IMG/VR virus record: IMGVR_UViG_3300039309_000221
Coordinates: 1-52,776 of that record
Strand: one strand, 5' to 3'
DNA: 52,776 nucleotides
DNA from: a virus
Lineage: Duplodnaviria > Caudoviricetes
The position numbers and the translations under genes were made by a program. How positions within the stretch are numbered: position 1 is the stretch's first letter; the number at the start of each line of letters is the position of its first letter. The notes beneath the pieces were generated by a model. It worked only from the letters and a program-made list of their open reading frames with translations, made no database searches and was not told where the DNA came from. Shown piece after piece: positions 1,297 through 51,469 of the stretch.

Positions 1297-2328
1297 ATGT
1301 CAGTTCCAGTTTTAGACAGAAATAAAATACCACTTATGCCTTGCTCTGAAAAGCGAGCTGCAAAGCTTATGGATAAGGGGCAAGCGAAGCCATATTGGCA
1401 AAAGGGTATTTTCTGCATAAAGCTGACCAAAGAGCCATCTGCAAGAAATTATCAAGAGGTAGCGTTGGGAATAGACCCAGGAAGCAAAAGAGAGGGTTAT
1501 ACAGTTGCTACTAAAAATAATGTTGTTCTTAACATAACTACAAATACGCCAGATTGGATTAAAATCCATATGGAAACAAGAAGAAATCTACGAAAAACAA
1601 GAAGATATAGGAAAACTCCATATAGAAAATGTAGATTAAATAGAAAAATAAACAAAGGATTTATTTGTCCAAGCACAAAAGCTCGTTGGTGTTCTAAATT
1701 AAGAATAATAAATCTTTTGAGAAGAATATTGCCTATCTCTTTAATAAATGTAGAAGATATAAAGGCGGAGAAAAAAGAAGGTAAAAGCAGATGGAATAGA
1801 AGTTTTTCTGGATTAGAAACTGGTAAAAATTGGTTCTATAAAGAAATAGTAAAATTAAATATTAAACTTATTTTGACAAAAGGAACAGATACGGCAGAGC
1901 ATAGAAAACAAAGAGGTTTTAAGAAATCAAAAAAGAAATTAGATTATATTTGGGAAACTCATAATGTTGATAGTCATTCATTAGCAGAAATAGTTTTAGA
2001 AAAAGAGATAAAACCTTATACTGGAATGTATAGAATAGATTTTCTTCGATATCGTAGGAGACAGTTGCATGTTCAAAACCCTATAAAAAATGGAAAGAGA
2101 AGACAATATGGTGGAACAGTTTCATTAGGACTATCAAGAGGAAGTGTTTTGCGTTATATAGGTAATAATAAAAGTTGGAAAAATAAAATCTATTATTTAA
2201 GCGGAACAAGTAATGGACAATTAACTATCTTAGATCTAAAAGATGATAGAAAAGTTTCTCATTGTATAAAAATAATAGATATAAATATATTATATATTAG
2301 TAAATATAAGGTATTATTTTGTAAATAA
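1297..2328 (+). CDS. isrB: IsrB RNA-guided nickase (IS200/IS605 OMEGA family, RRXRR domain)
   Basis: N-terminal PLMP motif, RuvC-I GIDPG, Arg-rich bridge helix RRNLRKTRRYRK, RuvC-II VED, RuvC-III HNVD; no HNH insert; 343 aa. Confidence 0.88.
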   Translation: MSVPVLDRNKIPLMPCSEKRAAKLMDKGQAKPYWQKGIFCIKLTKEPSARNYQEVALGIDPGSKREGYTVATKNNVVLNITTNTPDWIKIHMETRRNLRKTRRYRKTPYRKCRLNRKINKGFICPSTKARWCSKLRIINLLRRILPISLINVEDIKAEKKEGKSRWNRSFSGLETGKNWFYKEIVKLNIKLILTKGTDTAEHRKQRGFKKSKKKLDYIWETHNVDSHSLAEIVLEKEIKPYTGMYRIDFLRYRRRQLHVQNPIKNGKRRQYGGTVSLGLSRGSVLRYIGNNKSWKNKIYYLSGTSNGQLTILDLKDDRKVSHCIKIIDINILYISKYKVLFCK

Positions 2329-2357: not shown

Positions 2358-3059
2358 ATGAGCTATAAAGCTACGATTTTGTGTATTGATCCTCCTTATC
2401 TTTTCAAGGATCCACTTACGATGAGCGAAACTCCTCGTGGAGCGATGTCGAATTATCCTCCTCTAACAATAGAAGAGCTAAAAAAACTACCAATAGCAGA
2501 TATTGCAGACCCATCGGGAGCACTCCTTGCGTTATGGTGTCCCTCATCGCTTATCCAAAGCGGGCTTGATTTAATGAAAGTGTGGAACTTTGATTTTAAG
2601 CAGACTTGGATATGGGTAAAAATTAAAAAGAACATAAATATGAATGGCGATATAAATGATGTTTTAAGTATGTATATGGGTCATACTTTTAGACAATGCC
2701 ACGAAATATGTTTATTGGGCATCAATAATACAAAAGTATATAAGAAGCGTATAAATAAAGCTCAAAGATCGGTTTCATTTGCTGCAAATGCAAGACATTC
2801 AGAAAAGCCAGAAGAATTGCAAAACAGATTAGATATTATGTTCGGAAATAATGTTAATAAAATTGAATTATTTGCTCGTAGGCAGAGAAAAGGGACTATA
2901 TGTATTGGCAATGAGGCTCCTATGACATTTAATGAAGATATTAGATTATCTCTTTCCAAATTAATGGATTTATCAGATGATAAAATATCTTTAATAAAAG
3001 AAACTATTAATTTAGATAAGATTGATAATGAAAAATTAGTTTCTATTTGGAATGATTAG
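2358..3059 (+). CDS. MT-A70 family N6-adenine methyltransferase
   Basis: IDPPY catalytic motif, LALW, WIWVK, HSEKP, IELFAR motifs. Confidence 0.9.
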   Translation: MSYKATILCIDPPYLFKDPLTMSETPRGAMSNYPPLTIEELKKLPIADIADPSGALLALWCPSSLIQSGLDLMKVWNFDFKQTWIWVKIKKNINMNGDINDVLSMYMGHTFRQCHEICLLGINNTKVYKKRINKAQRSVSFAANARHSEKPEELQNRLDIMFGNNVNKIELFARRQRKGTICIGNEAPMTFNEDIRLSLSKLMDLSDDKISLIKETINLDKIDNEKLVSIWND

Positions 3060-3104: not shown

Positions 3105-3118
3105 AATTGATGAGGAAT

Positions 3119-3652
3119 ATGGTTGAGAAAAAAGTTCTTTTGTTAAATGAAACCTACGAAACTCTCTCTTTTATTAACGAGCGGCGGGCATTAAAATTAT
3201 TGTTTAAGGGCAAGGTTGATGTTTTGTCCGTTTGGAATGATGATGTTTTTCTTATCTCTGGCAAAATAAAGTTGCCAGCAATATTGAGATTGAGAAAGAG
3301 AGTTCGCAGAAATTATATTGCTAACAATGGATTTAGTCGCACCGCACTTATCCGCCGAGATGATAATTGTTGTCAATATTGTCAAAAGAGACTGACGCCT
3401 AATCAGCTCACCATAGATCATATTATTCCAAAACAGAGAGGTGGGCAGACAAGTTTTACTAATTGTGTCGTTTGTTGCAAGAAATGTAATTCAGAAAAGG
3501 GTAATAAAACACCAGAAGAAGTTGAAATGAAATTAATAAGGAAACCAGTAGCACCAACATTTTCTTCGTATTATTTTGTTTCTTGTGAGCAAGAGTTTTG
3601 GCATCCAGATTGGAACGATTATCTCGGATTAAATATCAATAAGAAAGTATAA
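3119..3652 (+). CDS. HNH endonuclease (McrA-like)
   Basis: VLLLN..YE.L N-terminus, CQYC, TIDHIIP..GG, NCVVCCKKCN; GAGGA RBS before ATG 3119. Confidence 0.9.
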   Translation: MVEKKVLLLNETYETLSFINERRALKLLFKGKVDVLSVWNDDVFLISGKIKLPAILRLRKRVRRNYIANNGFSRTALIRRDDNCCQYCQKRLTPNQLTIDHIIPKQRGGQTSFTNCVVCCKKCNSEKGNKTPEEVEMKLIRKPVAPTFSSYYFVSCEQEFWHPDWNDYLGLNINKKV

Positions 3653-5524: not shown

Positions 5525-6161
5525 TAATCCAGTTCGACCGACAAGACCAGTAACAGCACCGATAACATCAGCAAAACCAGTTCCATCGACACCTTCTACA
5601 TCTGCGGCAACGCCGGTAGTTAATCCGAGACCATCTGTCCATATAAACACTATTCCAAAGAGGACAGTGTTAGGGACAACATCGGCTCATCCTATTAAAG
5701 TAACAACAGCACCAGTTGCAACTCCACAAGTAACTCAAATGCCAGCTATTAAAACTGCTCCTGTTGTGAGAAAACCACCGATGACAACGGGAATAAAGGT
5801 TGTTAAGCCGGCGAGACCTGCTACAACTGCACCAACGACATCGTCTACAACGCCGGGGACAAAGGCAGCAACACCAACTACACCGGCAGTTAAAAAGCCA
5901 GTAGGAATGCGTGGCGCTCGTTCTGCGGCAGCAGTTGCGGCAGAGGCGGCAGCAAAAGCAAAGTTTGCAGGAATACCACAAGTAACAGTTCCTACGCATA
6001 CAACTCCGGCTACGACAACACCAACACCAGCAGCAGCAACACCAGCATCAACACCGACGGCAACACCGACGGCAACACCGACGGCAACACCGACGGCAAC
6101 ACCGACGGCAACACCGACGGCAACACCGACGACGACTACACCAAAAACAACAACAAAGTAG
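5517..6161 (+). CDS. Thr/Pro/Ala/Lys-rich low-complexity protein
   Basis: AAGGAG RBS before ATG 5517; almost no acidic or aromatic residues. Confidence 0.7.
   Translation: MANNPVRPTRPVTAPITSAKPVPSTPSTSAATPVVNPRPSVHINTIPKRTVLGTTSAHPIKVTTAPVATPQVTQMPAIKTAPVVRKPPMTTGIKVVKPARPATTAPTTSSTTPGTKAATPTTPAVKKPVGMRGARSAAAVAAEAAAKAKFAGIPQVTVPTHTTPATTTPTPAAATPASTPTATPTATPTATPTATPTATPTATPTTTTPKTTTK
6051..6131 (+). repeat. 12-bp tandem repeat ACACCGACGGCA, 6 copies plus a partial copy (TPTA peptide)
   Basis: Perfect copies 6051-6122, partial 6123-6131. Confidence 0.95.
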
Positions 6162-9727: not shown

Positions 9728-11926
9728 ATGCTTCCTTTGAGATTATTTATATCTAACCTTTCCTGCCACGAAAACTCTTTTATTGATTTTTCGCAATTTA
9801 ATTCTGCGATTATTATTGGAAGAAAAGAAAATGATGATCTTCATTCTAATGGAACAGGAAAGAGCTCAATATTTATAGCTATTGAATATTGTTTATTTGG
9901 AGAATGCCCTTTCTCATTAGATAAAATTATACGCGATGACGCTGATGCCTGCCGCGTCGTCCTCGATTTTTCTATTGATGATCAAATATATCGCATATCA
10001 CGAAAAAGAACTCGCCGCGGAACATCAGATTTAACTCTTCTTATGCAAAATAATACGCCTAATCCTTCTTACTACAAAATTATCAAAAATGATTATTTTC
10101 CAGTTGATGATAAAACATTTTGGAATGATATTAGTGGTCGCCGTGCCTCTGATACAGAACGCTATATTGAAAAGCTTATTAAGACAAATATAAAGTCCTT
10201 TCGTAATTCGATCCATTTTGCCCAGAACGATTTTGATGGGTTATCTACTTTACGACCTGAGAAAAGAAAAGCTCTTCTAAAAGAGGCTCTTAACATTGCA
10301 GTTTATTCCAAGTTAGAAAAAATTGCAAAAGAAAGAGCTTCCTTTCTTATCAAAGATATAGATAAAGCAAAAGCTCTCATCGAAAACTTCGGAGACTTAA
10401 ACTCTGATCTCTTAAAATTAAAAGAGCAACTCTCCGAAACAAAAGCCTCTCTTTCTTTCACCTCGGAAAAATTAAAACAACCAACTCTCGAATTAGATGA
10501 GGCAAACAAAGAATTAAATACTCTTATTCTTCTCCATAAAGAGTTAGAAACAAAATATTCATCATTAATTAATCAAGAAAAAACTCTTTCCTCTGAAATA
10601 TCAAAAATCTCTTCTTCTCTCAAAGAATATCAAGATAAAAAATTATTAGCAATAAAAGCAGCAAAAAATATTGTTTCCGAAATTAAAGAGATTAAGGAAA
10701 ATATCTCTTCTCTTTCAGAAATTGATTTTAATCAAATAGATATATTAACCGAACAAGTGTCCGAATTAAAACAAAAGCAAACAATTAATAATGTCGCCAT
10801 ACAAAATAATATGGCAGAATTATCTGAATTAAGAACTCCAATGCCAGATGATTTTTGTAAGCATTGTAGACAGCGATTGTCAGAAGAACATAAAGCTGCG
10901 TGTAAAGCAAAAATTGTTTCCGATATAGATAAATGTCAGAAAAATATTGCAGTAGCAAAAAAAGAAATATTAACTCTCTCTACCCAAATGATAGATGCTC
11001 AATCAAAAATTGCAGCCCTCTCAAAACAGAAACAACAATTAGATTTGCTAACAAATAAACTTTCATTGAAGAACTCTGAGCTTTCCGAAAAGAAAAAGAT
11101 GCATACAGAGATAACAGAAATCATAGAAAAATTTTCTAACTCATTGTTAGAAAAAGAAAATGAATTAGCATTCATTAATTCTGAAATTGAAAAATCTTCT
11201 TTTTCAGAAGGTAAAGAAATAGAAAATAAAATATCAGATCAAAAGAAAAAAACAGCTGCCCTTTCTTTGATTATATCATCAATAAATAAAGAGATAATGC
11301 ACGGAACAAGCTTAAAAGCTATTATTGAAAATAATATTGAACAAAAAATAAAAGATCAAAGCAAATTGCAGGAATTAAAATCAAAATTAATAGCGATAGA
11401 AAAACAGTATTATACCTACCCATCGGTCATTAATGCCTTCTCTGGGACAGGTATACCCGCATTAATTATACAAAATTGCCTCGATGATCTTCAATCGAAA
11501 GCAAATGACATATTAAATCAATTAAAACCAGAGCTACAATTATCTTTCATAATAGAGAAAACAAAATCTGATGGTGAGGAGGCTGATACATTGGATATAG
11601 AGTATTCGTTATCAGGTCGTTCCCGTTCGTATGAGCAATTATCGGGAGCACAAAAACTTTCTGCAACATTTTCATTAAAACTCGGACTATCTTTTCTTCT
11701 TTCTGATCTATTAGGGACAAATATAGAGTTTCTTCTTCTCGATGAGGTAGATCAATCGTTAGATGCGGCGAGTATAGATCAATTCGCAGAGATTGTTCGA
11801 CATTTTCAAGATAAGTTTAAGATACTAATAATATCGCACAATGATAGACTAAAAGATAAAATTGCGACAAAAATCGTCGTATCACAAGACAGTAATATGA
11901 TTAGTAGAGCGAAAGTTCTTTTATAG
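9728..11926 (+). CDS. sbcC: SbcC/Rad50-like SMC ATPase
   Basis: Walker A NGTGKSS, Q-loop FAQ, coiled coil with CKHC zinc hook, LSGAQ signature, LLLDEV Walker B, ISH. Confidence 0.92.
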   Translation: MLPLRLFISNLSCHENSFIDFSQFNSAIIIGRKENDDLHSNGTGKSSIFIAIEYCLFGECPFSLDKIIRDDADACRVVLDFSIDDQIYRISRKRTRRGTSDLTLLMQNNTPNPSYYKIIKNDYFPVDDKTFWNDISGRRASDTERYIEKLIKTNIKSFRNSIHFAQNDFDGLSTLRPEKRKALLKEALNIAVYSKLEKIAKERASFLIKDIDKAKALIENFGDLNSDLLKLKEQLSETKASLSFTSEKLKQPTLELDEANKELNTLILLHKELETKYSSLINQEKTLSSEISKISSSLKEYQDKKLLAIKAAKNIVSEIKEIKENISSLSEIDFNQIDILTEQVSELKQKQTINNVAIQNNMAELSELRTPMPDDFCKHCRQRLSEEHKAACKAKIVSDIDKCQKNIAVAKKEILTLSTQMIDAQSKIAALSKQKQQLDLLTNKLSLKNSELSEKKKMHTEITEIIEKFSNSLLEKENELAFINSEIEKSSFSEGKEIENKISDQKKKTAALSLIISSINKEIMHGTSLKAIIENNIEQKIKDQSKLQELKSKLIAIEKQYYTYPSVINAFSGTGIPALIIQNCLDDLQSKANDILNQLKPELQLSFIIEKTKSDGEEADTLDIEYSLSGRSRSYEQLSGAQKLSATFSLKLGLSFLLSDLLGTNIEFLLLDEVDQSLDAASIDQFAEIVRHFQDKFKILIISHNDRLKDKIATKIVVSQDSNMISRAKVLL

Positions 11927-11933
11927 GAGATAT

Positions 11934-12596
11934 ATGTCAAAACAGTATAGAATAGCAATATCTGGAAAAGCGAATACAGGAAAAGATACTACCGCAAATA
12001 TGTTAGCAGTTTCAGAATTAGCTTGGAAATACGATCTTTATAGCTTTGAGGAGAGGTTCGCCTTTCGTTCCGGCTTTGGCGTTTCAGAATTAGCTTGGAA
12101 ATACGATCTTTATAGCTATGAAAAATTAGCTTTTGCTAACCCTATTAAAGAGATAATCTCTACAATGTTTCCATCACTGGATAGAGAATATCTTTTCGGC
12201 TCATCAGAGCATAGAAACAAAATAATAACAATATCACAGGAAACAGGACAGCCTATAACAATACGACAACTTCTTCAAGATATTGGTGAGAGATGTAAAT
12301 CTATTGATCCAATGATTTGGATTAATGCATTAGATTATAGTATCTCTCAAAATAAAGATCGTAAGCTTATTATTGTTTCAGATTTAAGATTTATTGATGA
12401 ATATAAATATCTCAAAAATAATGGCTTTTTCATTATCCGTATTATTAAGAATACGGATCAAAATATGACACATATATCAGAGACACAACAAGAATGTTTA
12501 ACAGATGATAAGTTTGATTATACCATTAATAATAATGGCTCAATAAATGAGCTAAATGAAAATGTGTCCAAAATAGTTGAAATATTGATGCAATAA
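11934..12596 (+). CDS. Deoxynucleoside monophosphate kinase (T4 gp1-like) with a 24-aa internal insertion
   Basis: ISGKANTGKDT P-loop, AFANPIK, RQLLQDIG, VSDLRFIDE, HISE, INNNGS. Confidence 0.88.
   Translation: MSKQYRIAISGKANTGKDTTANMLAVSELAWKYDLYSFEERFAFRSGFGVSELAWKYDLYSYEKLAFANPIKEIISTMFPSLDREYLFGSSEHRNKIITISQETGQPITIRQLLQDIGERCKSIDPMIWINALDYSISQNKDRKLIIVSDLRFIDEYKYLKNNGFFIIRIIKNTDQNMTHISETQQECLTDDKFDYTINNNGSINELNENVSKIVEILMQ
12009..12117. repeat. CRISPR-like repeat-spacer-repeat unit (37-bp direct repeats, 35-nt spacer) inside the kinase gene
   Basis: GTTTCAGAATTAGCTTGGAAATACGATCTTTATAGCT at 12009-12045 and 12081-12117; spacer TTGAGGAGAGGTTCGCCTTTCGTTCCGGCTTTGGC. Confidence 0.9.
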
Positions 12597-12631
12597 GTTA
12601 TCGATAATTAATCATTATCTCGCATTTGTAT

Positions 12632-12946
12632 ATGACACTCGACGATCTGAAAAGAGAAGTCGTGCCAAAGTTTCTCTCTATTGGAAGTGATAAGTTTTAT
12701 CGTATTTTATTGACTTCTTCATTGAATAAATTAGTATTATTGGGTAAAGGAGAATATAAAGGACAGCCGCCTGATATAGAATTGTTAAGAGGATATGATC
12801 AGTTTTTAATCTTGTATAGACGCGAAGGCGAAGATGTTGCGTTAGATATAGCAAAGGTTTTTCGTCGGGCTGCTCATAAAATACACTGGATAATGTTGAA
12901 AAAAGAAATGACAACAAAAAATGATAAGTTTTTGAGATTGGTATAA
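12632..12946 (+). CDS. Hypothetical protein
   Basis: ORF track; ATG 12632 preferred over TTG 12626. Confidence 0.65.
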   Translation: MTLDDLKREVVPKFLSIGSDKFYRILLTSSLNKLVLLGKGEYKGQPPDIELLRGYDQFLILYRREGEDVALDIAKVFRRAAHKIHWIMLKKEMTTKNDKFLRLV

Positions 12947-12947
12947 A

Positions 12948-14036
12948 ATGGCAGTCATCACGATAACAATAACACGATCGCAAAATGAGGTCATCTCCGG
13001 TATTCCTCAGAGTATTGAATTAAGCACCAATATTCCATCGTCAATATTTTATACATTGGATGGTAGCGTTCCGACAACATCGTCGCCAGTATATACAAAC
13101 ATAATTTATCTTCCGACTGATCCTGCTGAATTAACAGCATATTTTACAGAGCCAGAACCTGGCGTAACAGAAACTTATACAGGCGGAGATGTTCCAATTT
13201 CATACAATGGTGTCTCATCAGTTATTTTAAGCGTCTTTGCAACCAATGGCGTCGATAGCTCACCAGTTATCGTTGAAACATTTGAGACAACAATTTTGCA
13301 TAATGCTCGCCGCCCTCATAGTGCAACAGATGCACCCGCGGGTGTGTCATACAATAATCTTTACCCATTCGGAACTAATGAGATATATCCAAATCAAAGA
13401 TATCTTAATCCTGGGGATGCGGGAATTAATGTCAATAATCCAGAATTGCCAACAATTTCCAACGGGTTTGACATCGATGGATACGCAGCATTATTTACAA
13501 ATAAGCCATATAATGTTGAGAATTATGAGATAATCAATATTAATACAGATGCGGAAGGTCAGCAGGTCGCAGGATTACCAGCAGGGAATGTTTTAGATTT
13601 TCAGTATCCGCCAGCACCACAGGAAAGCACAGAACAGTTCTCGGATAATGTTAATAATGTTTTTGATCCACAGGCTTTTGTTATCTTTCAGGACGCTTCA
13701 ATGCAGGACCCAGAAGAACCGCAGCAATTAGTAGGACAGTTTTTTACATTGTATCAGGACAGAGATACGGAATTGATGAACGAATATCTCTCGGCAGGAT
13801 ATAACGATTTTCATACTTGCACGGGCTCATTCGTGCGTAGCAGTTATAATATTCGCACAAATGAGATAACATTTGCACATTTTGATAGTAAAAATTGTCG
13901 CTGGCTCTTTAATGTATGTCAATATAAGCCTATTGGAGATTGGAAAGGAGACTTCACTCCTATAATGGATCCTAGGGGCGAGGCACATCGCCGCGTGACG
14001 GAATGGATTCCTTTCAAAAACGTACGCTTATGGTAA
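12948..14036 (+). CDS. Acidic protein with an N-terminal Fn3-associated/CHB_HEX_C-like domain; possibly structural
   Basis: IELSTNIPSSIFYTLDGSVPTTSSPVYT motif. Confidence 0.6.
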   Translation: MAVITITITRSQNEVISGIPQSIELSTNIPSSIFYTLDGSVPTTSSPVYTNIIYLPTDPAELTAYFTEPEPGVTETYTGGDVPISYNGVSSVILSVFATNGVDSSPVIVETFETTILHNARRPHSATDAPAGVSYNNLYPFGTNEIYPNQRYLNPGDAGINVNNPELPTISNGFDIDGYAALFTNKPYNVENYEIININTDAEGQQVAGLPAGNVLDFQYPPAPQESTEQFSDNVNNVFDPQAFVIFQDASMQDPEEPQQLVGQFFTLYQDRDTELMNEYLSAGYNDFHTCTGSFVRSSYNIRTNEITFAHFDSKNCRWLFNVCQYKPIGDWKGDFTPIMDPRGEAHRRVTEWIPFKNVRLW

Positions 14037-14079
14037 ATAATTATAAATAATATTATCTTTCATCCGTCGTGCCCACCTC

Positions 14080-14088
14080 TGATATATA
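14080..14088 (+). promoter_or_regulatory. TGATATATA putative phage promoter element
   Basis: Intergenic, upstream of ATG 14123; recurrent motif. Confidence 0.5.
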
Positions 14089-14122
14089 CATAGGAACACA
14101 CAAAATAAGAAAAGATGTATAT

Positions 14123-14920
14123 ATGTCAGAAAATAACGAGCTTCGGTTATCGGTGAGTAAAGTAAAAGTTTATAGTCAGTGTCAGAAGAAATACTTCTAC
14201 CAGTATATCGCTAAGATGCCGATGCGCGATGAAGAAGGTTTTTTTATTCTCGGTAAATTATGTCATAAAGCTCTTGAACTTTTTCATTTACATTATATTA
14301 ACTTTCCTTTATCAAAAGATCCATATAATAAAATTATGGGCAAAGCTTTTAAGGATGCGTGTTTAGATGCAAAGAATGAATTAACAAAAGAGATAAAATC
14401 AGATGCTTATAGAATGATAGATAAATATCTAAAAAGTATATCTACTAATAAGAAAAATAATAAGATAGCTAATGTTCTTTTCGCTGAAAAGCAATTTAGT
14501 ATTCCAATCGCTAACGATGTGTTGCTTAGCGGCATCATAGATCGTGTCGATTTTGATGATGATCAGGTTTACCATATTTTAGATTATAAGACTACCAAAG
14601 AAAAAAGATATTTAGAAAACGACCTTTTACAGTTAAAGTGTTATTCTTATGTGCTACTTTATCAACAGCCAGAATTAAAAAAGATTAGGTGTTCTTATTA
14701 TTTATTGAAGCACGGAGAGTTAATAACAAAAGAGTTCTACCCAGAAGAGATATTAAAAGTTAAGGATGTATTTATAGATTATGCGAGTAGGATAAGAGCA
14801 GAGACGGAATATAAGCCAAATCCTAATTTTTTATGTCGATATTGCCCTTTTCTTGACTCGTGCAATGAGGGTAAAGATAAAGTTTCGCCACAATTAAAAT
14901 ACGGAGAGATTGATTATTAA
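14123..14920 (+). CDS. PD-(D/E)XK Cas4/RecB-like exonuclease with Fe-S cluster cysteines
   Basis: LSVSK...QC..KY, GIIDRVD, ILDYKT, QL..Y, CRYCPF...C. Confidence 0.88.
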   Translation: MSENNELRLSVSKVKVYSQCQKKYFYQYIAKMPMRDEEGFFILGKLCHKALELFHLHYINFPLSKDPYNKIMGKAFKDACLDAKNELTKEIKSDAYRMIDKYLKSISTNKKNNKIANVLFAEKQFSIPIANDVLLSGIIDRVDFDDDQVYHILDYKTTKEKRYLENDLLQLKCYSYVLLYQQPELKKIRCSYYLLKHGELITKEFYPEEILKVKDVFIDYASRIRAETEYKPNPNFLCRYCPFLDSCNEGKDKVSPQLKYGEIDY

Positions 14921-17832: not shown

Positions 17833-19119
17833 ATGGTAAAAAGAAAAACAACAGAAGAGTTTATAATAGAAGCAAAAGAATTATATGGAGATAAGTTTGA
17901 TTATAGTAAAGTAGATTATAAAAATTGTAGAACTAAAATTATTATAATCTGTAAAAAGCACGGAGAGTTTGAGCAACTGCCTAACAATCATTTATCTGGA
18001 AGCGGATGCTGGTTATGTGGTATTGAAAATCAAAGAAAAGATCCAAATCTTTTTCTAAAAGAAGCAAAAGCTATTCACAATAATAAATATATTTATGATA
18101 AAGTCCAATATATAAATGATTGGACAGAAATAATAATTATATGTCCTATACATAATAAAGAGTTCAGACAATCACCAAATACTCATTTGCAAGGACACGG
18201 TTGTCCATATTGTGCAAATAACATTCAATTAACCAATGAGATTTTTGCAGATAAAGCAAATTATATACACAACTATCGCTATTCATATAATTATGTTGAT
18301 TATAAAAATAATCATACCAAAGTAAAAATAGGTTGTTTAATACACGGTATTTTTCAACAGACACCTAATGCTCATTTAAGTGGTGATGGGTGTCCAAGAT
18401 GTTCTAATTATGCAAGATTAGATACGGAGCTTTTTATTGAAAAAGCAAAATTAATCCAACCAGAAGGCAGATATAGTTATGATAATGTGTGTTATATAGA
18501 TCATCGCACGCCAATACAAATAACCTGCCTTTATCATAAAAAAGATTTTATACAAATGCCATATTTACATTTGCAGGGTCACGGTTGTCAAGATTGTTTT
18601 GCCAATGTAAAATACACAAATGAAACATATATAGAAAAAGCAAATATATTATATAATAATTTATATTGTTATGACAAATTAAATTATGATAATTGCAATA
18701 CCCCAATTATAATAATATGTAAAAAACACGGAGAGTTTAGTAGAAAGGCTTTTGTTCATTTACAAGGAGCTGGATGCCCCAAGTGTTATGAGTTTTCTAG
18801 TCGTTCTTCTAAAATAGAAGAAGAATGGCTAATCAGCTTAAATATTCCATCATTAAAGAAACAATGGCATATTTGTAAAACAAAATATTATGCAGATGGA
18901 TATGACCCAGCAACAAATACAATATATGAGTTTAATGGAGATTATTGGCACGGAAATCCAAATATTTATAAATCAGAAAATATTAATTTATCAGTAGATA
19001 AAACATATGGTGAATTATATAGAGATACTATTAAAAGAGAAGAAATAATAAGAAGCCTTGGATATAATTTGGTTGTTATGTGGGAAAGTGATTGGAAGAT
19101 ATTGAGAAAGGCGGCTTAA
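17833..19119 (+). CDS. Putative free-standing homing endonuclease: 5 Zn-binding repeats (DUF723-like) plus a Vsr/PD-(D/E)XK-like nuclease
   Basis: 5x CxxH..F...HL.G.GCxxC; C-terminal ADGYD..TNTIYEFNGDYWHGNP...WESDW. Confidence 0.8.
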   Translation: MVKRKTTEEFIIEAKELYGDKFDYSKVDYKNCRTKIIIICKKHGEFEQLPNNHLSGSGCWLCGIENQRKDPNLFLKEAKAIHNNKYIYDKVQYINDWTEIIIICPIHNKEFRQSPNTHLQGHGCPYCANNIQLTNEIFADKANYIHNYRYSYNYVDYKNNHTKVKIGCLIHGIFQQTPNAHLSGDGCPRCSNYARLDTELFIEKAKLIQPEGRYSYDNVCYIDHRTPIQITCLYHKKDFIQMPYLHLQGHGCQDCFANVKYTNETYIEKANILYNNLYCYDKLNYDNCNTPIIIICKKHGEFSRKAFVHLQGAGCPKCYEFSSRSSKIEEEWLISLNIPSLKKQWHICKTKYYADGYDPATNTIYEFNGDYWHGNPNIYKSENINLSVDKTYGELYRDTIKREEIIRSLGYNLVVMWESDWKILRKAA

Positions 19120-29724: not shown

Positions 29725-29747
29725 GTTATTATATTTTGGATATAAAA

Positions 29748-30860
29748 ATGGTAAAAAAGCATTCTTCAACAGAAGAGTTTAAAGGGAGAGCATATAAAAA
29801 ACATAATGGATACTATACTTATGAAAAAGTTGAATATATAGATGCTAAAACAAATGTGTTAATAACATGCCCAAAACATGGAGATTTTCCACAAACACCA
29901 AATCATCATTTATCTGGTCAAGGATGTAAAAAATGTTATCATGAAAGTAAAATAATAAAACAAGAAAACTTTATAGAGAGAACATTTATAATTCATAGCG
30001 GATATTATACATACAATAATGTTATATATAAAAACATGGACACCAATATATTAATAACATGTCCAAAACATGGAGACTTTCCGCAAAGACCTGATTCTCA
30101 TTTAGAAGGAAAAGGATGTCCTAATTGTGGATTAGAAAGACAGTCATTAAGACAAATATATTCAAAAGAAGAGTTTGAGCAGCTAGGATACAAAAAACAC
30201 AATGGATACTATACTTATGAAAAGACTGAATATGTAGATGCTAAAACAGATGTATTCATAACATGTCCAAAACATGGAGCTTTTTTACAAAAGCCAGTTT
30301 CTCATTTACAGGGACATGGATGTGGTTATTGTGCTAATGAAAAACGAGCAGAAAAATCCTCTTATTCGGAAGAAGAGTTTAAACAATTAGCTTATGAAGA
30401 ACATAATGGATATTATACATATAATAATACTATTTATATAAACAGTATAACAGACGTATTAATAACGTGTCCAATTCATGGAGATTTTCCACAAACACCA
30501 GTTTCTCATTTACAAGGACATGGTTGTTGGAAGTGCGCTGGAAGCACATCGAAAGGCGAGTCAGAATGGATAGCATCATTTAATAATCCAAATATAATAA
30601 AGCCAAAATCTTTAAGAATTAATGATAAGTGGTATAAACCAGATGGCTATGATGCAACAACAGGCACAATATATGAATATAATGGAGATTATTTTCACGG
30701 AAACCCAGCCTTATATAAGGCAGAAGATTTTCATCCAAATATTAAAAAGACCTATGGTGAATTATATCAAGAAACATTAAAAAAAGAAGATATATATAAA
30801 TCCGCAGGATATAAGGTAATATCTATTTGGGAAAGTGATTGGAAAAAGATAATTGAATAA
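29748..30860 (+). CDS. Putative free-standing homing endonuclease: 4 Zn repeats plus a Vsr/PD-(D/E)XK-like domain
   Basis: 4x ITCPxHG.F.Q.P..HL.G.GCxxC; KPDGYD...IYEYNGDYFHGNP...WESDW. Confidence 0.8.
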   Translation: MVKKHSSTEEFKGRAYKKHNGYYTYEKVEYIDAKTNVLITCPKHGDFPQTPNHHLSGQGCKKCYHESKIIKQENFIERTFIIHSGYYTYNNVIYKNMDTNILITCPKHGDFPQRPDSHLEGKGCPNCGLERQSLRQIYSKEEFEQLGYKKHNGYYTYEKTEYVDAKTDVFITCPKHGAFLQKPVSHLQGHGCGYCANEKRAEKSSYSEEEFKQLAYEEHNGYYTYNNTIYINSITDVLITCPIHGDFPQTPVSHLQGHGCWKCAGSTSKGESEWIASFNNPNIIKPKSLRINDKWYKPDGYDATTGTIYEYNGDYFHGNPALYKAEDFHPNIKKTYGELYQETLKKEDIYKSAGYKVISIWESDWKKIIE

Positions 30861-31488: not shown

Positions 31489-32589
31489 AAAACTCAAAAC
31501 CAAGAATAAGATTAAATAATGAAATCTTTATAGAAAGATCTATTAATATTCATGGCAATGAATATGATTATTCTTTGGTAAATTATATAAATTGTGAAAC
31601 GCCAGTTATAATTATATGTTTAAAACATGGTGAGTTTAGTCAGTTTCCTCTTAATCATACTCGTGGTTATAAATGTCCCGAATGTTCTGGGAAAAGAAAA
31701 TATACTAATGAAACTTTTATAAAAAAAAGCAAATGAATTATATAATTATTTTTATGATTATTCTTTGGTTAATTATGTAAATAATAATACTAATATAAAA
31801 ATTGTTTGTCCAGATCATGGAATATTTGAGCAGACACCTATATCACATTTATCTGGTAATAAATGTAAATACTGCACTGGCAAAGCAAAATTAAATACTA
31901 CGATTTTTGCAGAAAAAGGAAAAATTATTCATAATAATTATTATAGTTATAATAATGCTGTTTATATTGATAATAAGACAAAAGTATTAATAACATGTCC
32001 TATTCATGGAGATTTTTTACAATCACCGACTTGTCATATTAATCGTAAGGCAGGATGTCCTCAATGCTCTAAATGTAAAAAATATACCAATGAAACTTTT
32101 GCCGAAAAAGGTAAAATTATTCATAATAATTTTTATGATTATTCATTGGTAGATTATATAAATAATAAAACAAATGTTAAGATTATTTGTCCAAATCACG
32201 GTGTATTTGAGCAATGTCCATCGTCTCATATCAATCATCGTAGTAATTGTCCGCTTTGTATGAGCAATTCATCAAGAGGTGAAATAGAGTGGATAGCATC
32301 ATTTAATAATCCAAATATAATAAAACCACCATCATTAAAAATTAATGGAAAAACATATCATCCAGATGGATATGATACAATAACAAATACCGTTTATGAA
32401 TATAATGGCGATTTTTATCATGGAAATCCTATAAAATATAATCCAGAAGATATTAATCCAAAAAATAAAATATCATATGGACAATTATATCAAGAAACAT
32501 TAGATAAAAAAGCAGCTTATGAAGCTGCCGGATATAAAGTAATATCAATTTGGGGCAGTGAGTGGGATAAAAGAACAAGGAGAAAGTAG
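31485..32589 (+). pseudogene. Zn-repeat endonuclease split by a +1 frameshift in an A8 run (ORFs 31485-31736 and 31765-32589)
   Basis: Removing one A at 31721-31728 restores ETFIKKANELYNYFYDYSLVNY and gives a 4-repeat paralog of 29748..30860. Confidence 0.85.
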
Positions 32590-45601: not shown

Positions 45602-47485
45602 ATGCCGCAAGAAAAAGTTGAAAAAATTGACTTATTTGAGAAATTAAAAGCAGATCTGCTTAAAATAGATCCTTGTGCTTGGTGCGAAACCAATTTAACG
45701 CTTGAAGGTGAACCCTTTCGTCTTCATGGAAATGGTTATCGCCCATTAATGGATATATACAGATACATAGGCATAAAAGCATTAGAACCAAATGCGAAAC
45801 CAGTAATATGGGTCAAAGGACGACAGGTTGGAGCAACTATTTGTGCTTGTGCGTTAGAAATGTATTTTATGGGGAGCGGACTTTTCGGCAACAAAGATAA
45901 GCCACCTATTCGTGTTCTTCATGCTTTTCCGCAGCTCGATCACGCAGCGGCATATTCGAAAACAAAGCTTAATCAAATGATAACAATGTCTCGCCAGGTT
46001 GATAATCCTGACGCAAAAAAAGGATCAAAACAAAAATCGCTAATGCAGTCATTAATTGACCAATCATCGTCAACTAATGATTCATTAACCTTTAAACAGT
46101 TTCAGGGCGGAAATCATTTATGGGTTGAGAGTACAGGAATCGATTCTGACCGCATAATGGGGCGTTCCTGCGACATTATGCTTTTTGATGAAATTCAGAA
46201 AATTCCCGGACTTGCCATAGGAAATGCATTAAAAATATTAACAGCATCTAAGTATGGCAAGCCATCAAAAGGGGTTCAGTTTTATTTTGGAACCCCCCGT
46301 CGCAAGGGATCAGATTATCATAAAATGTGGCAATCGAGCACACAGCAATATTATCATCTTGGTTGCGAAAAATGTCATCAATATTTTCCATTATATACAC
46401 CAGGGTCGGATAGCTGGAAAAAGATTTGGCTACATGGGTATATTGTTCAGTGCCCTCATTGCGGACAAGAACAAGATAAAAGGGATGCTGCGGAAAGAGG
46501 AAAGTGGTTTGCATTAAGAGATGAAAATGACCCAGAGTGCAGAATGATTGGTTTTCATCTTAACCAGTTATATATGCCACGGTTCCAAAAAGAAGATATA
46601 CTTGGTGAGGAACCAGGGGTTCATCCAATTAATACAGAGAGAGTTTTTCATAATGAGGTGCTTGGTGAATTTTATCAGGGTGATGCATCGCCAATAACGC
46701 CAGAAGAAATACGAGAAATGTGCGGAGAGCCCGAGAGAAGATTTGTATCACGAATAGAGCCAAACAAAGATCAAATAGTTGTTATGGGAATAGATTATGG
46801 ATTAAGAGCTAATCTTGAAGAGGCGGCAAATCCTGATAAAGTTAAATCTATCGGAATATCATATAGTGTTGCTACTATTATGTTAGTCAAAGGTCCAAAA
46901 TTATTATCTATTGAGTTTGCATTGAAGTTTAAGCGAAATGATCCAGCAAGTAAAAAAGAGCTCATCGATCAGCTTATGAGGCAATATAGTGTTAATCTTT
47001 GCGTCGGTGATATCGGATATTCTAATGATTTTTCGCAAACATTGCATACAGAATATGGTGATAGATATTTAGTTTCTCGATGTGCTGGTGGCAAGCTTAA
47101 TGATTTTGTTAAGTTTAGAACTGATACTTTTCCAAAGGAAATTGTTTTTGATAGAGATCATTATATAGGCGAGTTTATAGATTTGTTAAAAGGCGGAAAT
47201 ATTAAGTTCCCATTAGGAGATTATGAAAGAATTGCGTGGCTTATAGATCATTGTTCCTCTATGGAATTAAAACCAAGCATATCAAGATTTGGCGATCCAA
47301 GTATTCATTATGTAAAAGGTGGATCAGCTAACGATGGTTTAATGAGTGCTCTAAACGCATATATAGCCTATAAGTTTATCATAACAAAGGGATTTACCAC
47401 AAATAATCCATTAGTCATCGAGCAAGGGTTTAAGAACAGAGAAAAACCTCTCGCCGTTGGTGGATATATCTCACGACGAATATAA
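45602..47485 (+). CDS. terL: Terminase large subunit (lambda GpA-like)
   Basis: KGRQVGAT Walker A, LFDEIQ Walker B, GTP coupling motif, CEKC/CPHC, GFHLNQLY, NEVLGEFY, MGIDYG nuclease. Confidence 0.9.
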   Translation: MPQEKVEKIDLFEKLKADLLKIDPCAWCETNLTLEGEPFRLHGNGYRPLMDIYRYIGIKALEPNAKPVIWVKGRQVGATICACALEMYFMGSGLFGNKDKPPIRVLHAFPQLDHAAAYSKTKLNQMITMSRQVDNPDAKKGSKQKSLMQSLIDQSSSTNDSLTFKQFQGGNHLWVESTGIDSDRIMGRSCDIMLFDEIQKIPGLAIGNALKILTASKYGKPSKGVQFYFGTPRRKGSDYHKMWQSSTQQYYHLGCEKCHQYFPLYTPGSDSWKKIWLHGYIVQCPHCGQEQDKRDAAERGKWFALRDENDPECRMIGFHLNQLYMPRFQKEDILGEEPGVHPINTERVFHNEVLGEFYQGDASPITPEEIREMCGEPERRFVSRIEPNKDQIVVMGIDYGLRANLEEAANPDKVKSIGISYSVATIMLVKGPKLLSIEFALKFKRNDPASKKELIDQLMRQYSVNLCVGDIGYSNDFSQTLHTEYGDRYLVSRCAGGKLNDFVKFRTDTFPKEIVFDRDHYIGEFIDLLKGGNIKFPLGDYERIAWLIDHCSSMELKPSISRFGDPSIHYVKGGSANDGLMSALNAYIAYKFIITKGFTTNNPLVIEQGFKNREKPLAVGGYISRRI

Positions 47486-49429: not shown

Positions 49430-51469
49430 ATGGATAAACTCATTGAAAAAATTGCTCAAAGAAGAGGATTGCTAAACAAAATAAGAGAGAAGACAAATAT
49501 TTCTGGAATAGCGGCAGAGAAGTATTTTAATCCAGAGTTGCAGCAGGTAATGGATCATTTGCGTGATGTTGACGATGGTGTTCGAGCAATAGCAATAGGG
49601 CAAGCAGTTGGAGAGGCAAATGCTCCTGAAGATCCGATAAGTTTAAAGCAGATATTGAAATCTGTTAAATCTAATTTAGCTCGTCGTGAATATATGAAAG
49701 CCGCAGCTGATCTTGGGCGCTTTCATAAGAAGGTTTTCGATATAGCTCATTTACTATCATTGTTCACCGCTAATATAGATAAAGCTCATAAAAAGTTTCT
49801 TTTTCAAGATTTAGATGAAGAGACAGCAAATAAGTTAAAGTATTTGGCTAATAAATGGAAACCAAAAGCTGCTGATTATTTTACAGTTTCTCTTATCAAG
49901 AATGCTGGTATTATGGATTTTCTTCATAATATTGGAACGGAGCGTGGTCGTGCATTAGCATATTGGGAAAAGACTTATCCAGGAAAAGTAAAAAAGTTAA
50001 AAGAGCAAACTATATCACTTCTTTCGCAATCTGAAAAGCTTAATGGAACGATTAATCAATTATTTGCTGATCTCGCAAAGGCTCGTGCAGTAAGAAATCC
50101 TGATAACTACATTAATGTATCAAATAAGATGATTAATGAAATTAAGAAATATGATGAGAGTGATCGTGGTTTTAGAAAGTATTATGAAGAAAATATAAAG
50201 GGTGATTTAGAGCAGTTTTTTAAGGAACAAGAAGAAGCTGCTGCTAAAAAAGATCAAGAGGCTGCGCCAGTATCAAATGTCAAAATACCTTCTGCCCTTC
50301 CAATTCCAAGCTTAAAGATTAATAATCCAGTTCGTCCGATTGCCGCGCCATTAGATGTTGATTTTGGGCAAGAAAAACAAAATGTTTCTCCACAAAATAT
50401 AGCTCCGAAGCAGGAAGAAAAAACTCATTCATTAGATGAACTTATTCATAAAAAGGATCCAGTTTCTGGCGATATAACATTAATAGATCCAGATACATCT
50501 GAAATCATTGGACATATAGAGGGCAATAATCCACCAGCCGTATTGCCAAATAAACCAGCTGTTGTGGAAACTAAACCAGTAGTTCCAGAAGCAAAACCAG
50601 TCCCGGCAGCAAAACCAGTCCCGGCAGCAAAACCAGTTTCAGTCGAACAAAAGCCAGCAAAAAAGAGAGAAAATCTTTTGGATTTTAAGCTTCCACTTAA
50701 ACCACCAGGTAAAAAAGCTGAATATACAGCATTTTTAAAATCATTAGAAGCTCTTGCTGATGAGAGTCCTCTAATGTTGTCAAAATATATTTCTAAATAT
50801 GCAAAGCTAATTTTTGAGAATGATCCAGAAACTGCTCTTTCTCTAATGAAAATAGCGGCTCGTGCGGAGAATAATGATGGAAATAGAGTCTCCCGTATAA
50901 GAACTAATGTATCCGAAGCAGATATGAGTTCTGCAATATCATCTGCTTGGAGTAAATTATTCAATGGAGAAAAACCATCGAAAGAGCAAATAGCTCTTAT
51001 TCTTGCTCAAAATGCATTAGAGACAAATCATAGAAAGAGTATGTTTAACTATAATATTGGTAATATAACTACAAATGGTTTAGGCACTTATGATTATTAT
51101 GATGATCTGACTACATCAGAACAAATTAAGCCTGGTCTCTGGAAAAAAATGAACCTTAAATATCGAGCATACCCATCATTAGAAGCTGGTGCTGAGGATT
51201 ATTTGAGATTCATATCATCTGGACGATATTCCTCTGCTTGGGAGCATATTTTGCATCCAGATCCTGTCGCTTACTCAAAAGCATTAAAGGCAGCGGGGTA
51301 TTATACAGCCGATGAGAAAAAATACACTTCTGCCATAAATAAGTTATATGATAGCTACTCTAAATCGCAAGGTGCACAAACTTCACAAGAACAAGGTGCT
51401 TTTTCTAACTTAGAGGCATTATTGGATAGATACATTCAGATGACCTCATCCGCGTCGAGGAGAAATTAA
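49430..51469 (+). CDS. Large protein with C-terminal GH73/FlgJ-like glucosaminidase (peptidoglycan hydrolase) domain
   Basis: ILAQNALET...YNIGNI...YRAYPSLEAGAEDY..F...LKAAGYYTAD..Y. Confidence 0.75.
   Translation: MDKLIEKIAQRRGLLNKIREKTNISGIAAEKYFNPELQQVMDHLRDVDDGVRAIAIGQAVGEANAPEDPISLKQILKSVKSNLARREYMKAAADLGRFHKKVFDIAHLLSLFTANIDKAHKKFLFQDLDEETANKLKYLANKWKPKAADYFTVSLIKNAGIMDFLHNIGTERGRALAYWEKTYPGKVKKLKEQTISLLSQSEKLNGTINQLFADLAKARAVRNPDNYINVSNKMINEIKKYDESDRGFRKYYEENIKGDLEQFFKEQEEAAAKKDQEAAPVSNVKIPSALPIPSLKINNPVRPIAAPLDVDFGQEKQNVSPQNIAPKQEEKTHSLDELIHKKDPVSGDITLIDPDTSEIIGHIEGNNPPAVLPNKPAVVETKPVVPEAKPVPAAKPVPAAKPVSVEQKPAKKRENLLDFKLPLKPPGKKAEYTAFLKSLEALADESPLMLSKYISKYAKLIFENDPETALSLMKIAARAENNDGNRVSRIRTNVSEADMSSAISSAWSKLFNGEKPSKEQIALILAQNALETNHRKSMFNYNIGNITTNGLGTYDYYDDLTTSEQIKPGLWKKMNLKYRAYPSLEAGAEDYLRFISSGRYSSAWEHILHPDPVAYSKALKAAGYYTADEKKYTSAINKLYDSYSKSQGAQTSQEQGAFSNLEALLDRYIQMTSSASRRN
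50591..50637 (+). repeat. 18-bp tandem repeat GCAAAACCAGTCCCGGCA, 2 copies plus a partial copy (AKPVPA)
   Basis: Read directly; lies in a Pro-rich linker. Confidence 0.9.

Follow-up and report, generated by a model that had tools for sequence, protein, structure and literature searches.

A 35-nt insert between 37-bp direct repeats in a phage dNMP kinase gene, a candidate product of off-target CRISPR spacer integration

The DNA analyzed here, referred to below as the window, is a linear stretch of 52,776 bp that constitutes an IMG/VR virus record (IMGVR_UViG_3300039309_000221) with a completeness estimate of 12%. It contains a gene encoding a deoxynucleoside monophosphate (dNMP) kinase, and inside this gene a unique 35-nt sequence is flanked by two identical 37-bp segments, an arrangement resembling one repeat-spacer-repeat unit of a CRISPR array. 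An earlier reading made from the sequence alone had proposed that the Cas1-Cas2 integrase of a host wrote a spacer into the phage at this place. The features of the locus are as follows.

11934..12596, + strand: dNMP kinase gene, 220 aa; match to Pfam DNMK PF21448 at 62.1 bits versus a cut-off of 27.1
12009..12045, + strand: left 37-bp copy ("repeat"), starting GTTTCAG and ending ATAGCT; encodes VSELAWKYDLYS
12046..12080, + strand: 35-nt unique insert ("spacer"), 20/35 G+C (57%); encodes FEERFAFRSGFG in frame
12081..12117, + strand: right 37-bp copy, identical to the left copy at 37/37 nt

A repeat finder and inspection of the sequence both gave two 37-nt copies with 0 mismatches, and when one mismatch was allowed the match extended to 41 nt. 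The limits of 37 bp are exact, since the bases just outside the two copies differ, both before them (A versus C) and after them (T versus A). When the window was searched by pattern with up to three mismatches, the repeat was found twice and the insert once, with 0 occurrences in 100 shuffles, and the unit is the only one of its kind within the window. The insert has the length of a spacer, is not copied from the flanks, and contains no in-frame stop. Its G+C content is reached by only 2.25% of 35-nt segments, the window as a whole having 34% G+C and the kinase gene, minus 72 nt, 29%. This composition is suggestive of an outside origin of the insert but is not proof of one. Sequence, repeat finder, and pattern search thus bear out the initial description of two perfect 37-bp repeats around a unique, G+C-rich spacer.

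The 72 additional nucleotides are in frame within the kinase, as had been proposed, and the translation of the open reading frame and the match to PF21448 agree on this point. The encoded protein reads ...NMLA-VSELAWKYDLYS-FEERFAFRSGFG-VSELAWKYDLYS-YEKLAF..., and both the P-loop, GKANTGKD, and the conserved core of the 220-aa kinase are intact. PF21448 is the T4 gp1-like family, and the nearest solved structure is that of the T4 dNMP kinase (1DEK), with a profile match at an E value of 9.7e-15. Alignment with the T4 enzyme places the insertion between the P-loop helix and the following strand (strand 2). An AlphaFold2 model of the kinase had a mean predicted local distance difference test (pLDDT) score of 79, with a confident P-loop core, whereas residues 31-60, which lie between the helix formed by residues 17-33 and the strand formed by residues 62-66, had pLDDT values of only 52-58. 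Both the alignment and the model agree with the position first assigned to the insertion, just past the P-loop helix.

At the insertion site, the length of the loop differs among homologs that are 39-50% identical to the kinase, and in these proteins we found neither the duplicated motif nor a counterpart of FEERFAFRSGFG, in keeping with the expectation that the spacer is not part of the normal kinase loop. An in-frame addition within a variable loop is plausibly tolerated, and the 220-aa kinase is probably still active. The proposal that the insertion persisted because 72 is a multiple of 3 agrees with the open frame, the absence of a stop, and the variable loop, while its remaining part, continued kinase function, is conjectural. 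One further homolog, encoded at G004:C1:202503-203120 (locus L206) in a related phage of 481 kb and 43% G+C, has one in-frame TAG in its gene, which could mean that the gene is broken or that the stop codon has been reassigned.

The 90% protein cluster that includes the window's kinase has three members: the 220-aa protein itself, P0013 (also 220 aa), and P0014 (196 aa). At the protein level, P0014 corresponds to the window's kinase minus exactly 24 residues, that is, one repeat copy plus the insert, and the only other change is S2P. A kinase with one copy of the repeat and no spacer had been predicted in advance, and P0014 matches that prediction. P0013 has two substitutions and retains the insert, so the insert is present in at least two lineages. 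Twelve contigs encode the identical 220-aa protein, and one contig each the 220-aa variant and the 196-aa form. Scans of collections of viral and metagenome contigs revealed 0 other carriers of the 37-nt repeat, although these scans may omit records near the window and did not return the window's own sequence, making their blanks weak. Because P0014 has an empty site and the loop of the homologs varies in length, the event is, as judged from this comparison, a precise insertion of 35 nt together with duplication of a 37-bp target. The excess of the filled allele (13/14 contigs) may be a matter of drift or hitch-hiking.

The junctions were checked with independently built Logan contigs from four peat or soil runs, two of which possibly represent the source sample and two of which are not so marked. 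Each of the four runs yielded a 95-nt contig equal to positions 12016-12110, comprising 30 nt of repeat, the insert, and a further 30 nt of repeat. Each also yielded a left-flank piece that includes the first 30 nt of the repeat, a unitig of 37 nt corresponding to the repeat itself, and a right flank starting from 12088. This four-piece pattern is the expected output of a 31-mer graph on a repeat-insert-repeat sequence. Across the four runs, the repeat piece was 2.18, 1.72, 1.88, and 2.03 times as deep as the insert piece, which accords with two passages through the repeat for every one through the insert. Both junctions were thereby shown to exist in reads, and a ratio of about 2 in 4/4 runs makes it unlikely that the empty allele is abundant in them. 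Flank depth ratios, which ranged from 0.44 to 1.7 between runs, were considered as a sign of mixed alleles, but contig depths are rough, and we make no such claim.

We then asked how often related phages carry units of this shape, scanning for perfect direct repeats of at least 22-24 nt separated by a unique stretch. Within 1.17 Mb made up of the window plus related loci around terminase and kinase genes, the window's unit alone has this shape; the scan otherwise picked up a tandem repeat of 18 nt and a unit of 30 + 24. Four near-complete related genomes, 1.81 Mb in total, contained none, the sole match there being a low-complexity 30 + 57 unit. With no similar unit in about 3 Mb, the structure is not typical of these genomes, and ordinary duplication in them does not yield it.

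Two familiar sources of repeated sequence could be discarded. Tandem duplication by slippage does not account for the 35 unique nucleotides between the copies, which are absent from the short allele P0014; the sequence-only reading had made the same point in stating that slippage would not add foreign sequence between copies, and 35 unrelated bases do separate them. Target duplications made by transposons are about 2-15 bp long, and insertion of a transposon or insertion sequence was rejected in view of the 37-bp duplication and of an insert of 35 nt without inverted ends. To our knowledge, the only described process that duplicates approximately 30-38 bp around an insert of approximately 30-40 nt is spacer integration by Cas1-Cas2.

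Cas1-Cas2 integration, as described in passages of PMC6698737 and PMC10212523, has a size and a G/GTT start that fit the unit. The former source reports in the relevant passage that Cas1-Cas2 attack prefers G, and GTT, at repeat positions 1-3. It also reports, from in vitro work with the Pyrococcus furiosus proteins, that off-target integration sites resemble repeats in both size and sequence. Off-target integration in vivo in E. coli is mentioned in citing passages of PMC6698737, PMC7054753, and bioRxiv 10.1101/148544.

The dimensions of the unit were compared with those of CRISPR arrays by scanning one genome per species for GTTTCAG occurring three times at a period of 70-75 nt, which gave at least 120 loci. 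Among the matches listed, at least 72 hold arrays having 35-38-nt repeats that start with GTTTCAG, and the listed GTTTCAG arrays belong, among others, to Terriglobia, cyanobacteria, Chloroflexota, Leptospira, and Bacteroidota. Three array loci were inspected; Cas1 and Cas4 adjoin the array in two of these, and the third is without a cas gene among the open reading frames scanned. The locus from Terriglobia has Cas7, Cas1, and Cas4 alongside the array. In the Leptospira locus (L013:1-7246), 37-nt GTTTCAGTTGCTAGG... repeats lie beside Cas4, Cas1, and a Cas9 of 1453 aa with a Csx12 lobe, a gene set that we take to be type II-B. Because matching arrays occur in at least 72 of the listed loci, predicted integrases that measure 37 bp and serve arrays with GTTTCAG-initial repeats and spacers of about 35 nt are common.

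The phage unit is like the GTTTCAG arrays of Terriglobia, cyanobacteria, Chloroflexota, Leptospira, and other groups in its repeat length of 37, its spacer of about 35 nt, its period of 72, and its first 7 nt. It differs from them in having a single spacer, with no leader or cas genes nearby, and in its 3' end, ...TATAGCT, which is unlike the common GAAAC-type ends. A likeness to type II-B-like GTTTCAGT(A/T)GCT... repeats by way of the TAGCT motif was also considered, and was rejected since it needs a shift of 3 nt and is not significant.

The reading that we favor, with moderate confidence, is that the unit arose by natural off-target Cas1-Cas2 integration into phage DNA and was tolerated because it lies in frame in a variable loop. 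It would begin with a Cas1-Cas2 integrase, most likely that of the host, which carries a 35-nt prespacer and attacks the kinase gene during infection. This integrase would have a 37-bp ruler, and the repeats it naturally serves would start with G/GTT, probably GTTTCAG. The first attack would fall at G12009 on the top strand, at a site that may resemble a leader-repeat junction, and the second on the other strand 37 bp away. Repair of the gaps would then leave a copy of the 37 bp at each side of the inserted sequence. The kinase would stay open, because 37 + 35 = 72 is divisible by three, no in-frame stop is introduced, and the site is in a variable loop; the enzyme would probably remain active, and the allele would spread in the peat phage population. 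The anatomy of the unit, its junctions, the empty-site allele, the agreement of its dimensions with real arrays, and the rarity of such units are observed, and Cas1-Cas2 as the actor, the organism to which it belonged, and the continued function of the kinase are inferred.

The proposed event may be set beside two known systems. Nivala, Shipman, and Church (Nat Microbiol, 2018) reportedly found 'neo-CRISPR' loci arising from non-canonical spacer integration in E. coli. The phage unit is similar to these in having a spacer-sized insert between repeat-sized copies of the target, at a site whose first 7 nt are like those with which a repeat begins, and away from arrays. The known 'neo-CRISPR' cases, as far as the available passages describe them, concern E. 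coli chromosomes in cells over-producing Cas1-Cas2, with additional circumstantial cases in two species. The phage unit differs in that its target is the genome of a wild phage, in that it lies in frame within the gene of a conserved enzyme, and in that filled and empty alleles are both represented. The P. furiosus Cas1-Cas2 system, in the passages of PMC6698737 that describe it, makes paired attacks one repeat length apart, which the present unit resembles along with its GTT start. That system has a spacing of 30 bp and calls for a C at leader position -3 and a C at the last base of the repeat (PMC6698737, same passages), whereas the phage unit has a spacing of 37 bp, a G at position -3, and a T as its last base.

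Several observations weigh against integration by Cas1-Cas2. Past its initial 7 nt, the 37-mer resembles the 72 real repeats no more than shuffled sequences do, 69/300 of which score as well, and the duplicated segment ends in T, not in the C (G on the other strand) that is usual at repeat ends. The comparison with real CRISPR repeats thus holds for the length, the 72-nt period, and the GTTTCAG start, but not for any likeness beyond 7 nt. In favor of integration, the share of window positions expected to form such a segment end is only 0.34% for GTTTC and 0.027% for GTTTCAG, although these frequencies are not clean probabilities because the motif was noticed after the site had been seen. Against it, again, only one scar was found in the lineage, and hence there is no recurrence to support the process.

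The search for a source of the insert belongs with these points. Exact scans of viral, metagenome, and genome contigs gave 0 matches to the insert, a weak negative since these scans may omit records close to the window and did not recover the window itself; blastn against phages and plasmids gave chance-level hits only, with E values of at least 0.3; a relaxed local blastn found nothing else in the window and nothing in 3.75 Mb of collected loci; and five related genomes contained 0 occurrences with up to three mismatches. With no protospacer match there is therefore no protospacer adjacent motif (PAM), and no proof of foreign origin. The expectation that the spacer could be traced to a host or mobile genetic element with a PAM was thus not borne out in the collections, phages, plasmids, and related genomes searched. 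In the reverse direction, comparison of the window with the spacers of the at least 120 listed array loci gave no match better than expected by chance; the best was 23 nt with one mismatch and lay outside an array. The suggestion that the spacer or the repeat might identify the host likewise found no support, the repeat being the gene's own coding sequence and not a host repeat.

Genes for the proposed integrase were also sought. Cas1 and Cas2 are absent from the window, which is about 12% of the genome, and Cas1 was found in 0/5 related genomes, four of which are 97-100% complete. Array-like periodic repeats were absent from the four near-complete related genomes. We therefore rejected adaptation by phage-borne enzymes, and consider a host enzyme more likely than one of the phage. 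A gene at 14069-14920 (+) was evaluated as possibly Cas4-like and rejected, as its product matches the general PD-(D/E)XK family PF12705 at 116 bits and not Cas4 PF01930, the family that is matched by the true Cas4 proteins beside the arrays of loci L048 and L013. In sum, the claim that a host Cas1-Cas2 wrote the spacer is partly supported, by the footprint, the empty-site allele, and the geometry, but not by a protospacer, a PAM, a host array, or a cas gene.

The foremost alternative is that the insert entered by some other route, which we regard as possible though doubtful. In one form, a staggered double nick about 37 bp apart would be followed by fill-in and by end joining with a captured 35-nt filler; in the other, replication would switch template to an unseen region of the phage or host and back again. 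The lack of a cas gene, a host array, or a protospacer in our searches favors such a route, as does the presence in the window of genes for nucleases that could nick, namely an IsrB-like RRXRR protein, HNH enzymes, and Mre11/Rad50-like and PD-(D/E)XK proteins. Because 88% of the phage genome is unseen, a local template also remains conceivable; derivation of the insert from adjacent phage sequence by template switching, which had been named as an outcome that would count against spacer acquisition, is opposed by the absence of a second copy of the insert from the window, but the window leaves most of the genome out of view. Conversely, the sizes and the GTTTCAG start closely fit CRISPR arrays, and no second similar event was seen in about 3 Mb of related phages with similar nuclease genes. 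Moreover, we know of no nuclease, transposase, or end-joining route that gives a 37-bp duplication with a 35-nt insert, and we count this against the alternative.

The direction of change could also be the opposite of that assumed, with the 220-aa form being the older, gene conversion having maintained the identity of its internal repeated motif, and a recombination deletion having given rise to the 196-aa allele. The 220-aa forms are much the commoner (13 contigs versus 1), and a phage that encodes recombination proteins of its own could plausibly recombine two direct repeats of 37 bp. We nonetheless judge this history unlikely, given that the homologs at 39-50% identity are without the duplicated motif and without a FEERFAFRSGFG counterpart, that the two copies agree at 37/37 nt, synonymous sites included, and that the G+C content is 57% for the insert but 29% for the gene. 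It would, in addition, still leave the origin of the repeat-insert-repeat unexplained.

A different suggestion is that the unit serves as a working phage mini-array or RNA decoy, transcribed in the kinase mRNA, then bound or processed by host Cas proteins, and either guiding these against a competitor or soaking them up. Roles of this kind have been described for mini-arrays and single repeat units of viruses (passages of PMC11656645 and PMC10651486, the latter on RNA anti-CRISPRs), and the phage unit is like them in being a single repeat-spacer-repeat in a viral genome; the predominance of the insertion allele would also be in keeping with such a role. However, the mini-arrays described in the passages of PMC11656645 have repeats identical to those of the host, and the mini-arrays and solitary units of both sources lie outside genes, whereas the phage unit duplicates the gene's own sequence. 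The repeat is the kinase's native coding sequence, single in the empty allele P0014, and its likeness to real repeats stops at 7 nt, with the usual 3' end or handle absent. The repeat RNA matched no Rfam family above chance and had no CRISPR-DR match, and folding of the repeat gave no stable hairpin (z-scores of 0.6-0.7). No target for the insert was found in the searches made. The sequence-only reading had raised the possibility of a gene-embedded CRISPR RNA (crRNA) or decoy RNA, which is unsupported by these results, and because the repeat is native, because a CRISPR-DR match, hairpin, and 3' handle are lacking, and because the described mini-arrays are host-identical, we rate such a role as very improbable.

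An assembly or chimera artefact, which might be suspected in that the window is a metagenome contig, that de Bruijn graphs break at a 37-nt repeat, and that the whole unit is spanned by 0 contigs in the four runs, can be set aside with near certainty, as both junction words occur in contigs of 4/4 runs, two of them not marked as a possible source, the repeat-to-insert depth is about 2 to 1 in all four, and 12 contigs encode the 220-aa protein, with an insert-bearing variant on another.

Turning to the phage itself, the stretch from 11500 to 13000 is present in 19-20 public peat and soil metagenome runs from 19 studies. The large terminase gene of the window, at 45602-47485, has 104 IMG/VR relatives at 48-71% identity, on contigs of up to 481 kb, and one of the contigs of these terminase relatives (loci L123-L202) has direct terminal repeats. 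Because the relatives of the terminase sit on contigs of that size, the window is taken to be part of a huge phage with a genome of roughly 350-480 kb. The closest cultured phages by terminase have only about 26% identity, and no host was deduced from them.

Several other genes in the window were noted in passing. The gene at 1297-2328 (+) encodes a 343-aa protein matching Pfam RRXRR at 127 bits, with which its earlier designation as IsrB-like is consistent. It is followed by genes for an MT-A70 methyltransferase (2358-3059) and an HNH endonuclease (3107-3652). We noticed no connection between these three genes and the kinase insertion, but no search was aimed at one. Genes with internal repeats of 192-204 nt occur at 17833-19119, 29736-30860, and 31765-32589. 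Two of the three match PHROG HNH endonuclease families over several stretches, and the three genes have the appearance of a multi-repeat family of homing-type endonucleases. Short perfect tandem repeats lie within open reading frames at 6031-6131 and 50581-50637, consisting of a 12-nt unit present 6.9-8 times and an 18-nt unit present 2.7 times.

Our search of the literature, which was of limited coverage, revealed no report of an event of this type in a phage genome. Taken at its furthest, off-target integration by Cas1-Cas2 would imply that, in nature, spacers are written into the genomes of infecting phages by the adaptation enzymes of their hosts, and that some of the scars survive, which could remodel phage proteins in frame and seed mini-arrays. 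In its boldest version the RNA of the unit would engage host Cas proteins, explaining why the filled allele is found on 13/14 contigs. We regard this extended proposal as a long shot.

If integration by Cas1-Cas2 did produce the unit, phage DNA would serve this integrase as a target as well as a source, and a phage that survives the hit would carry it forward as a heritable polymorphism in a wild population. The unit would then be an example of natural off-target adaptation outside the laboratory, and would illustrate a simple route to the first repeat-spacer-repeat units in viral genomes as well as a new way for phage proteins to gain in-frame insertions. The 37-bp length and the first bases of the duplicated segment would in that case record the ruler and the junction preference of the host integrase, and the ruler so recorded could narrow the search for the host of this clade of 350-480 kb peat and soil phages.
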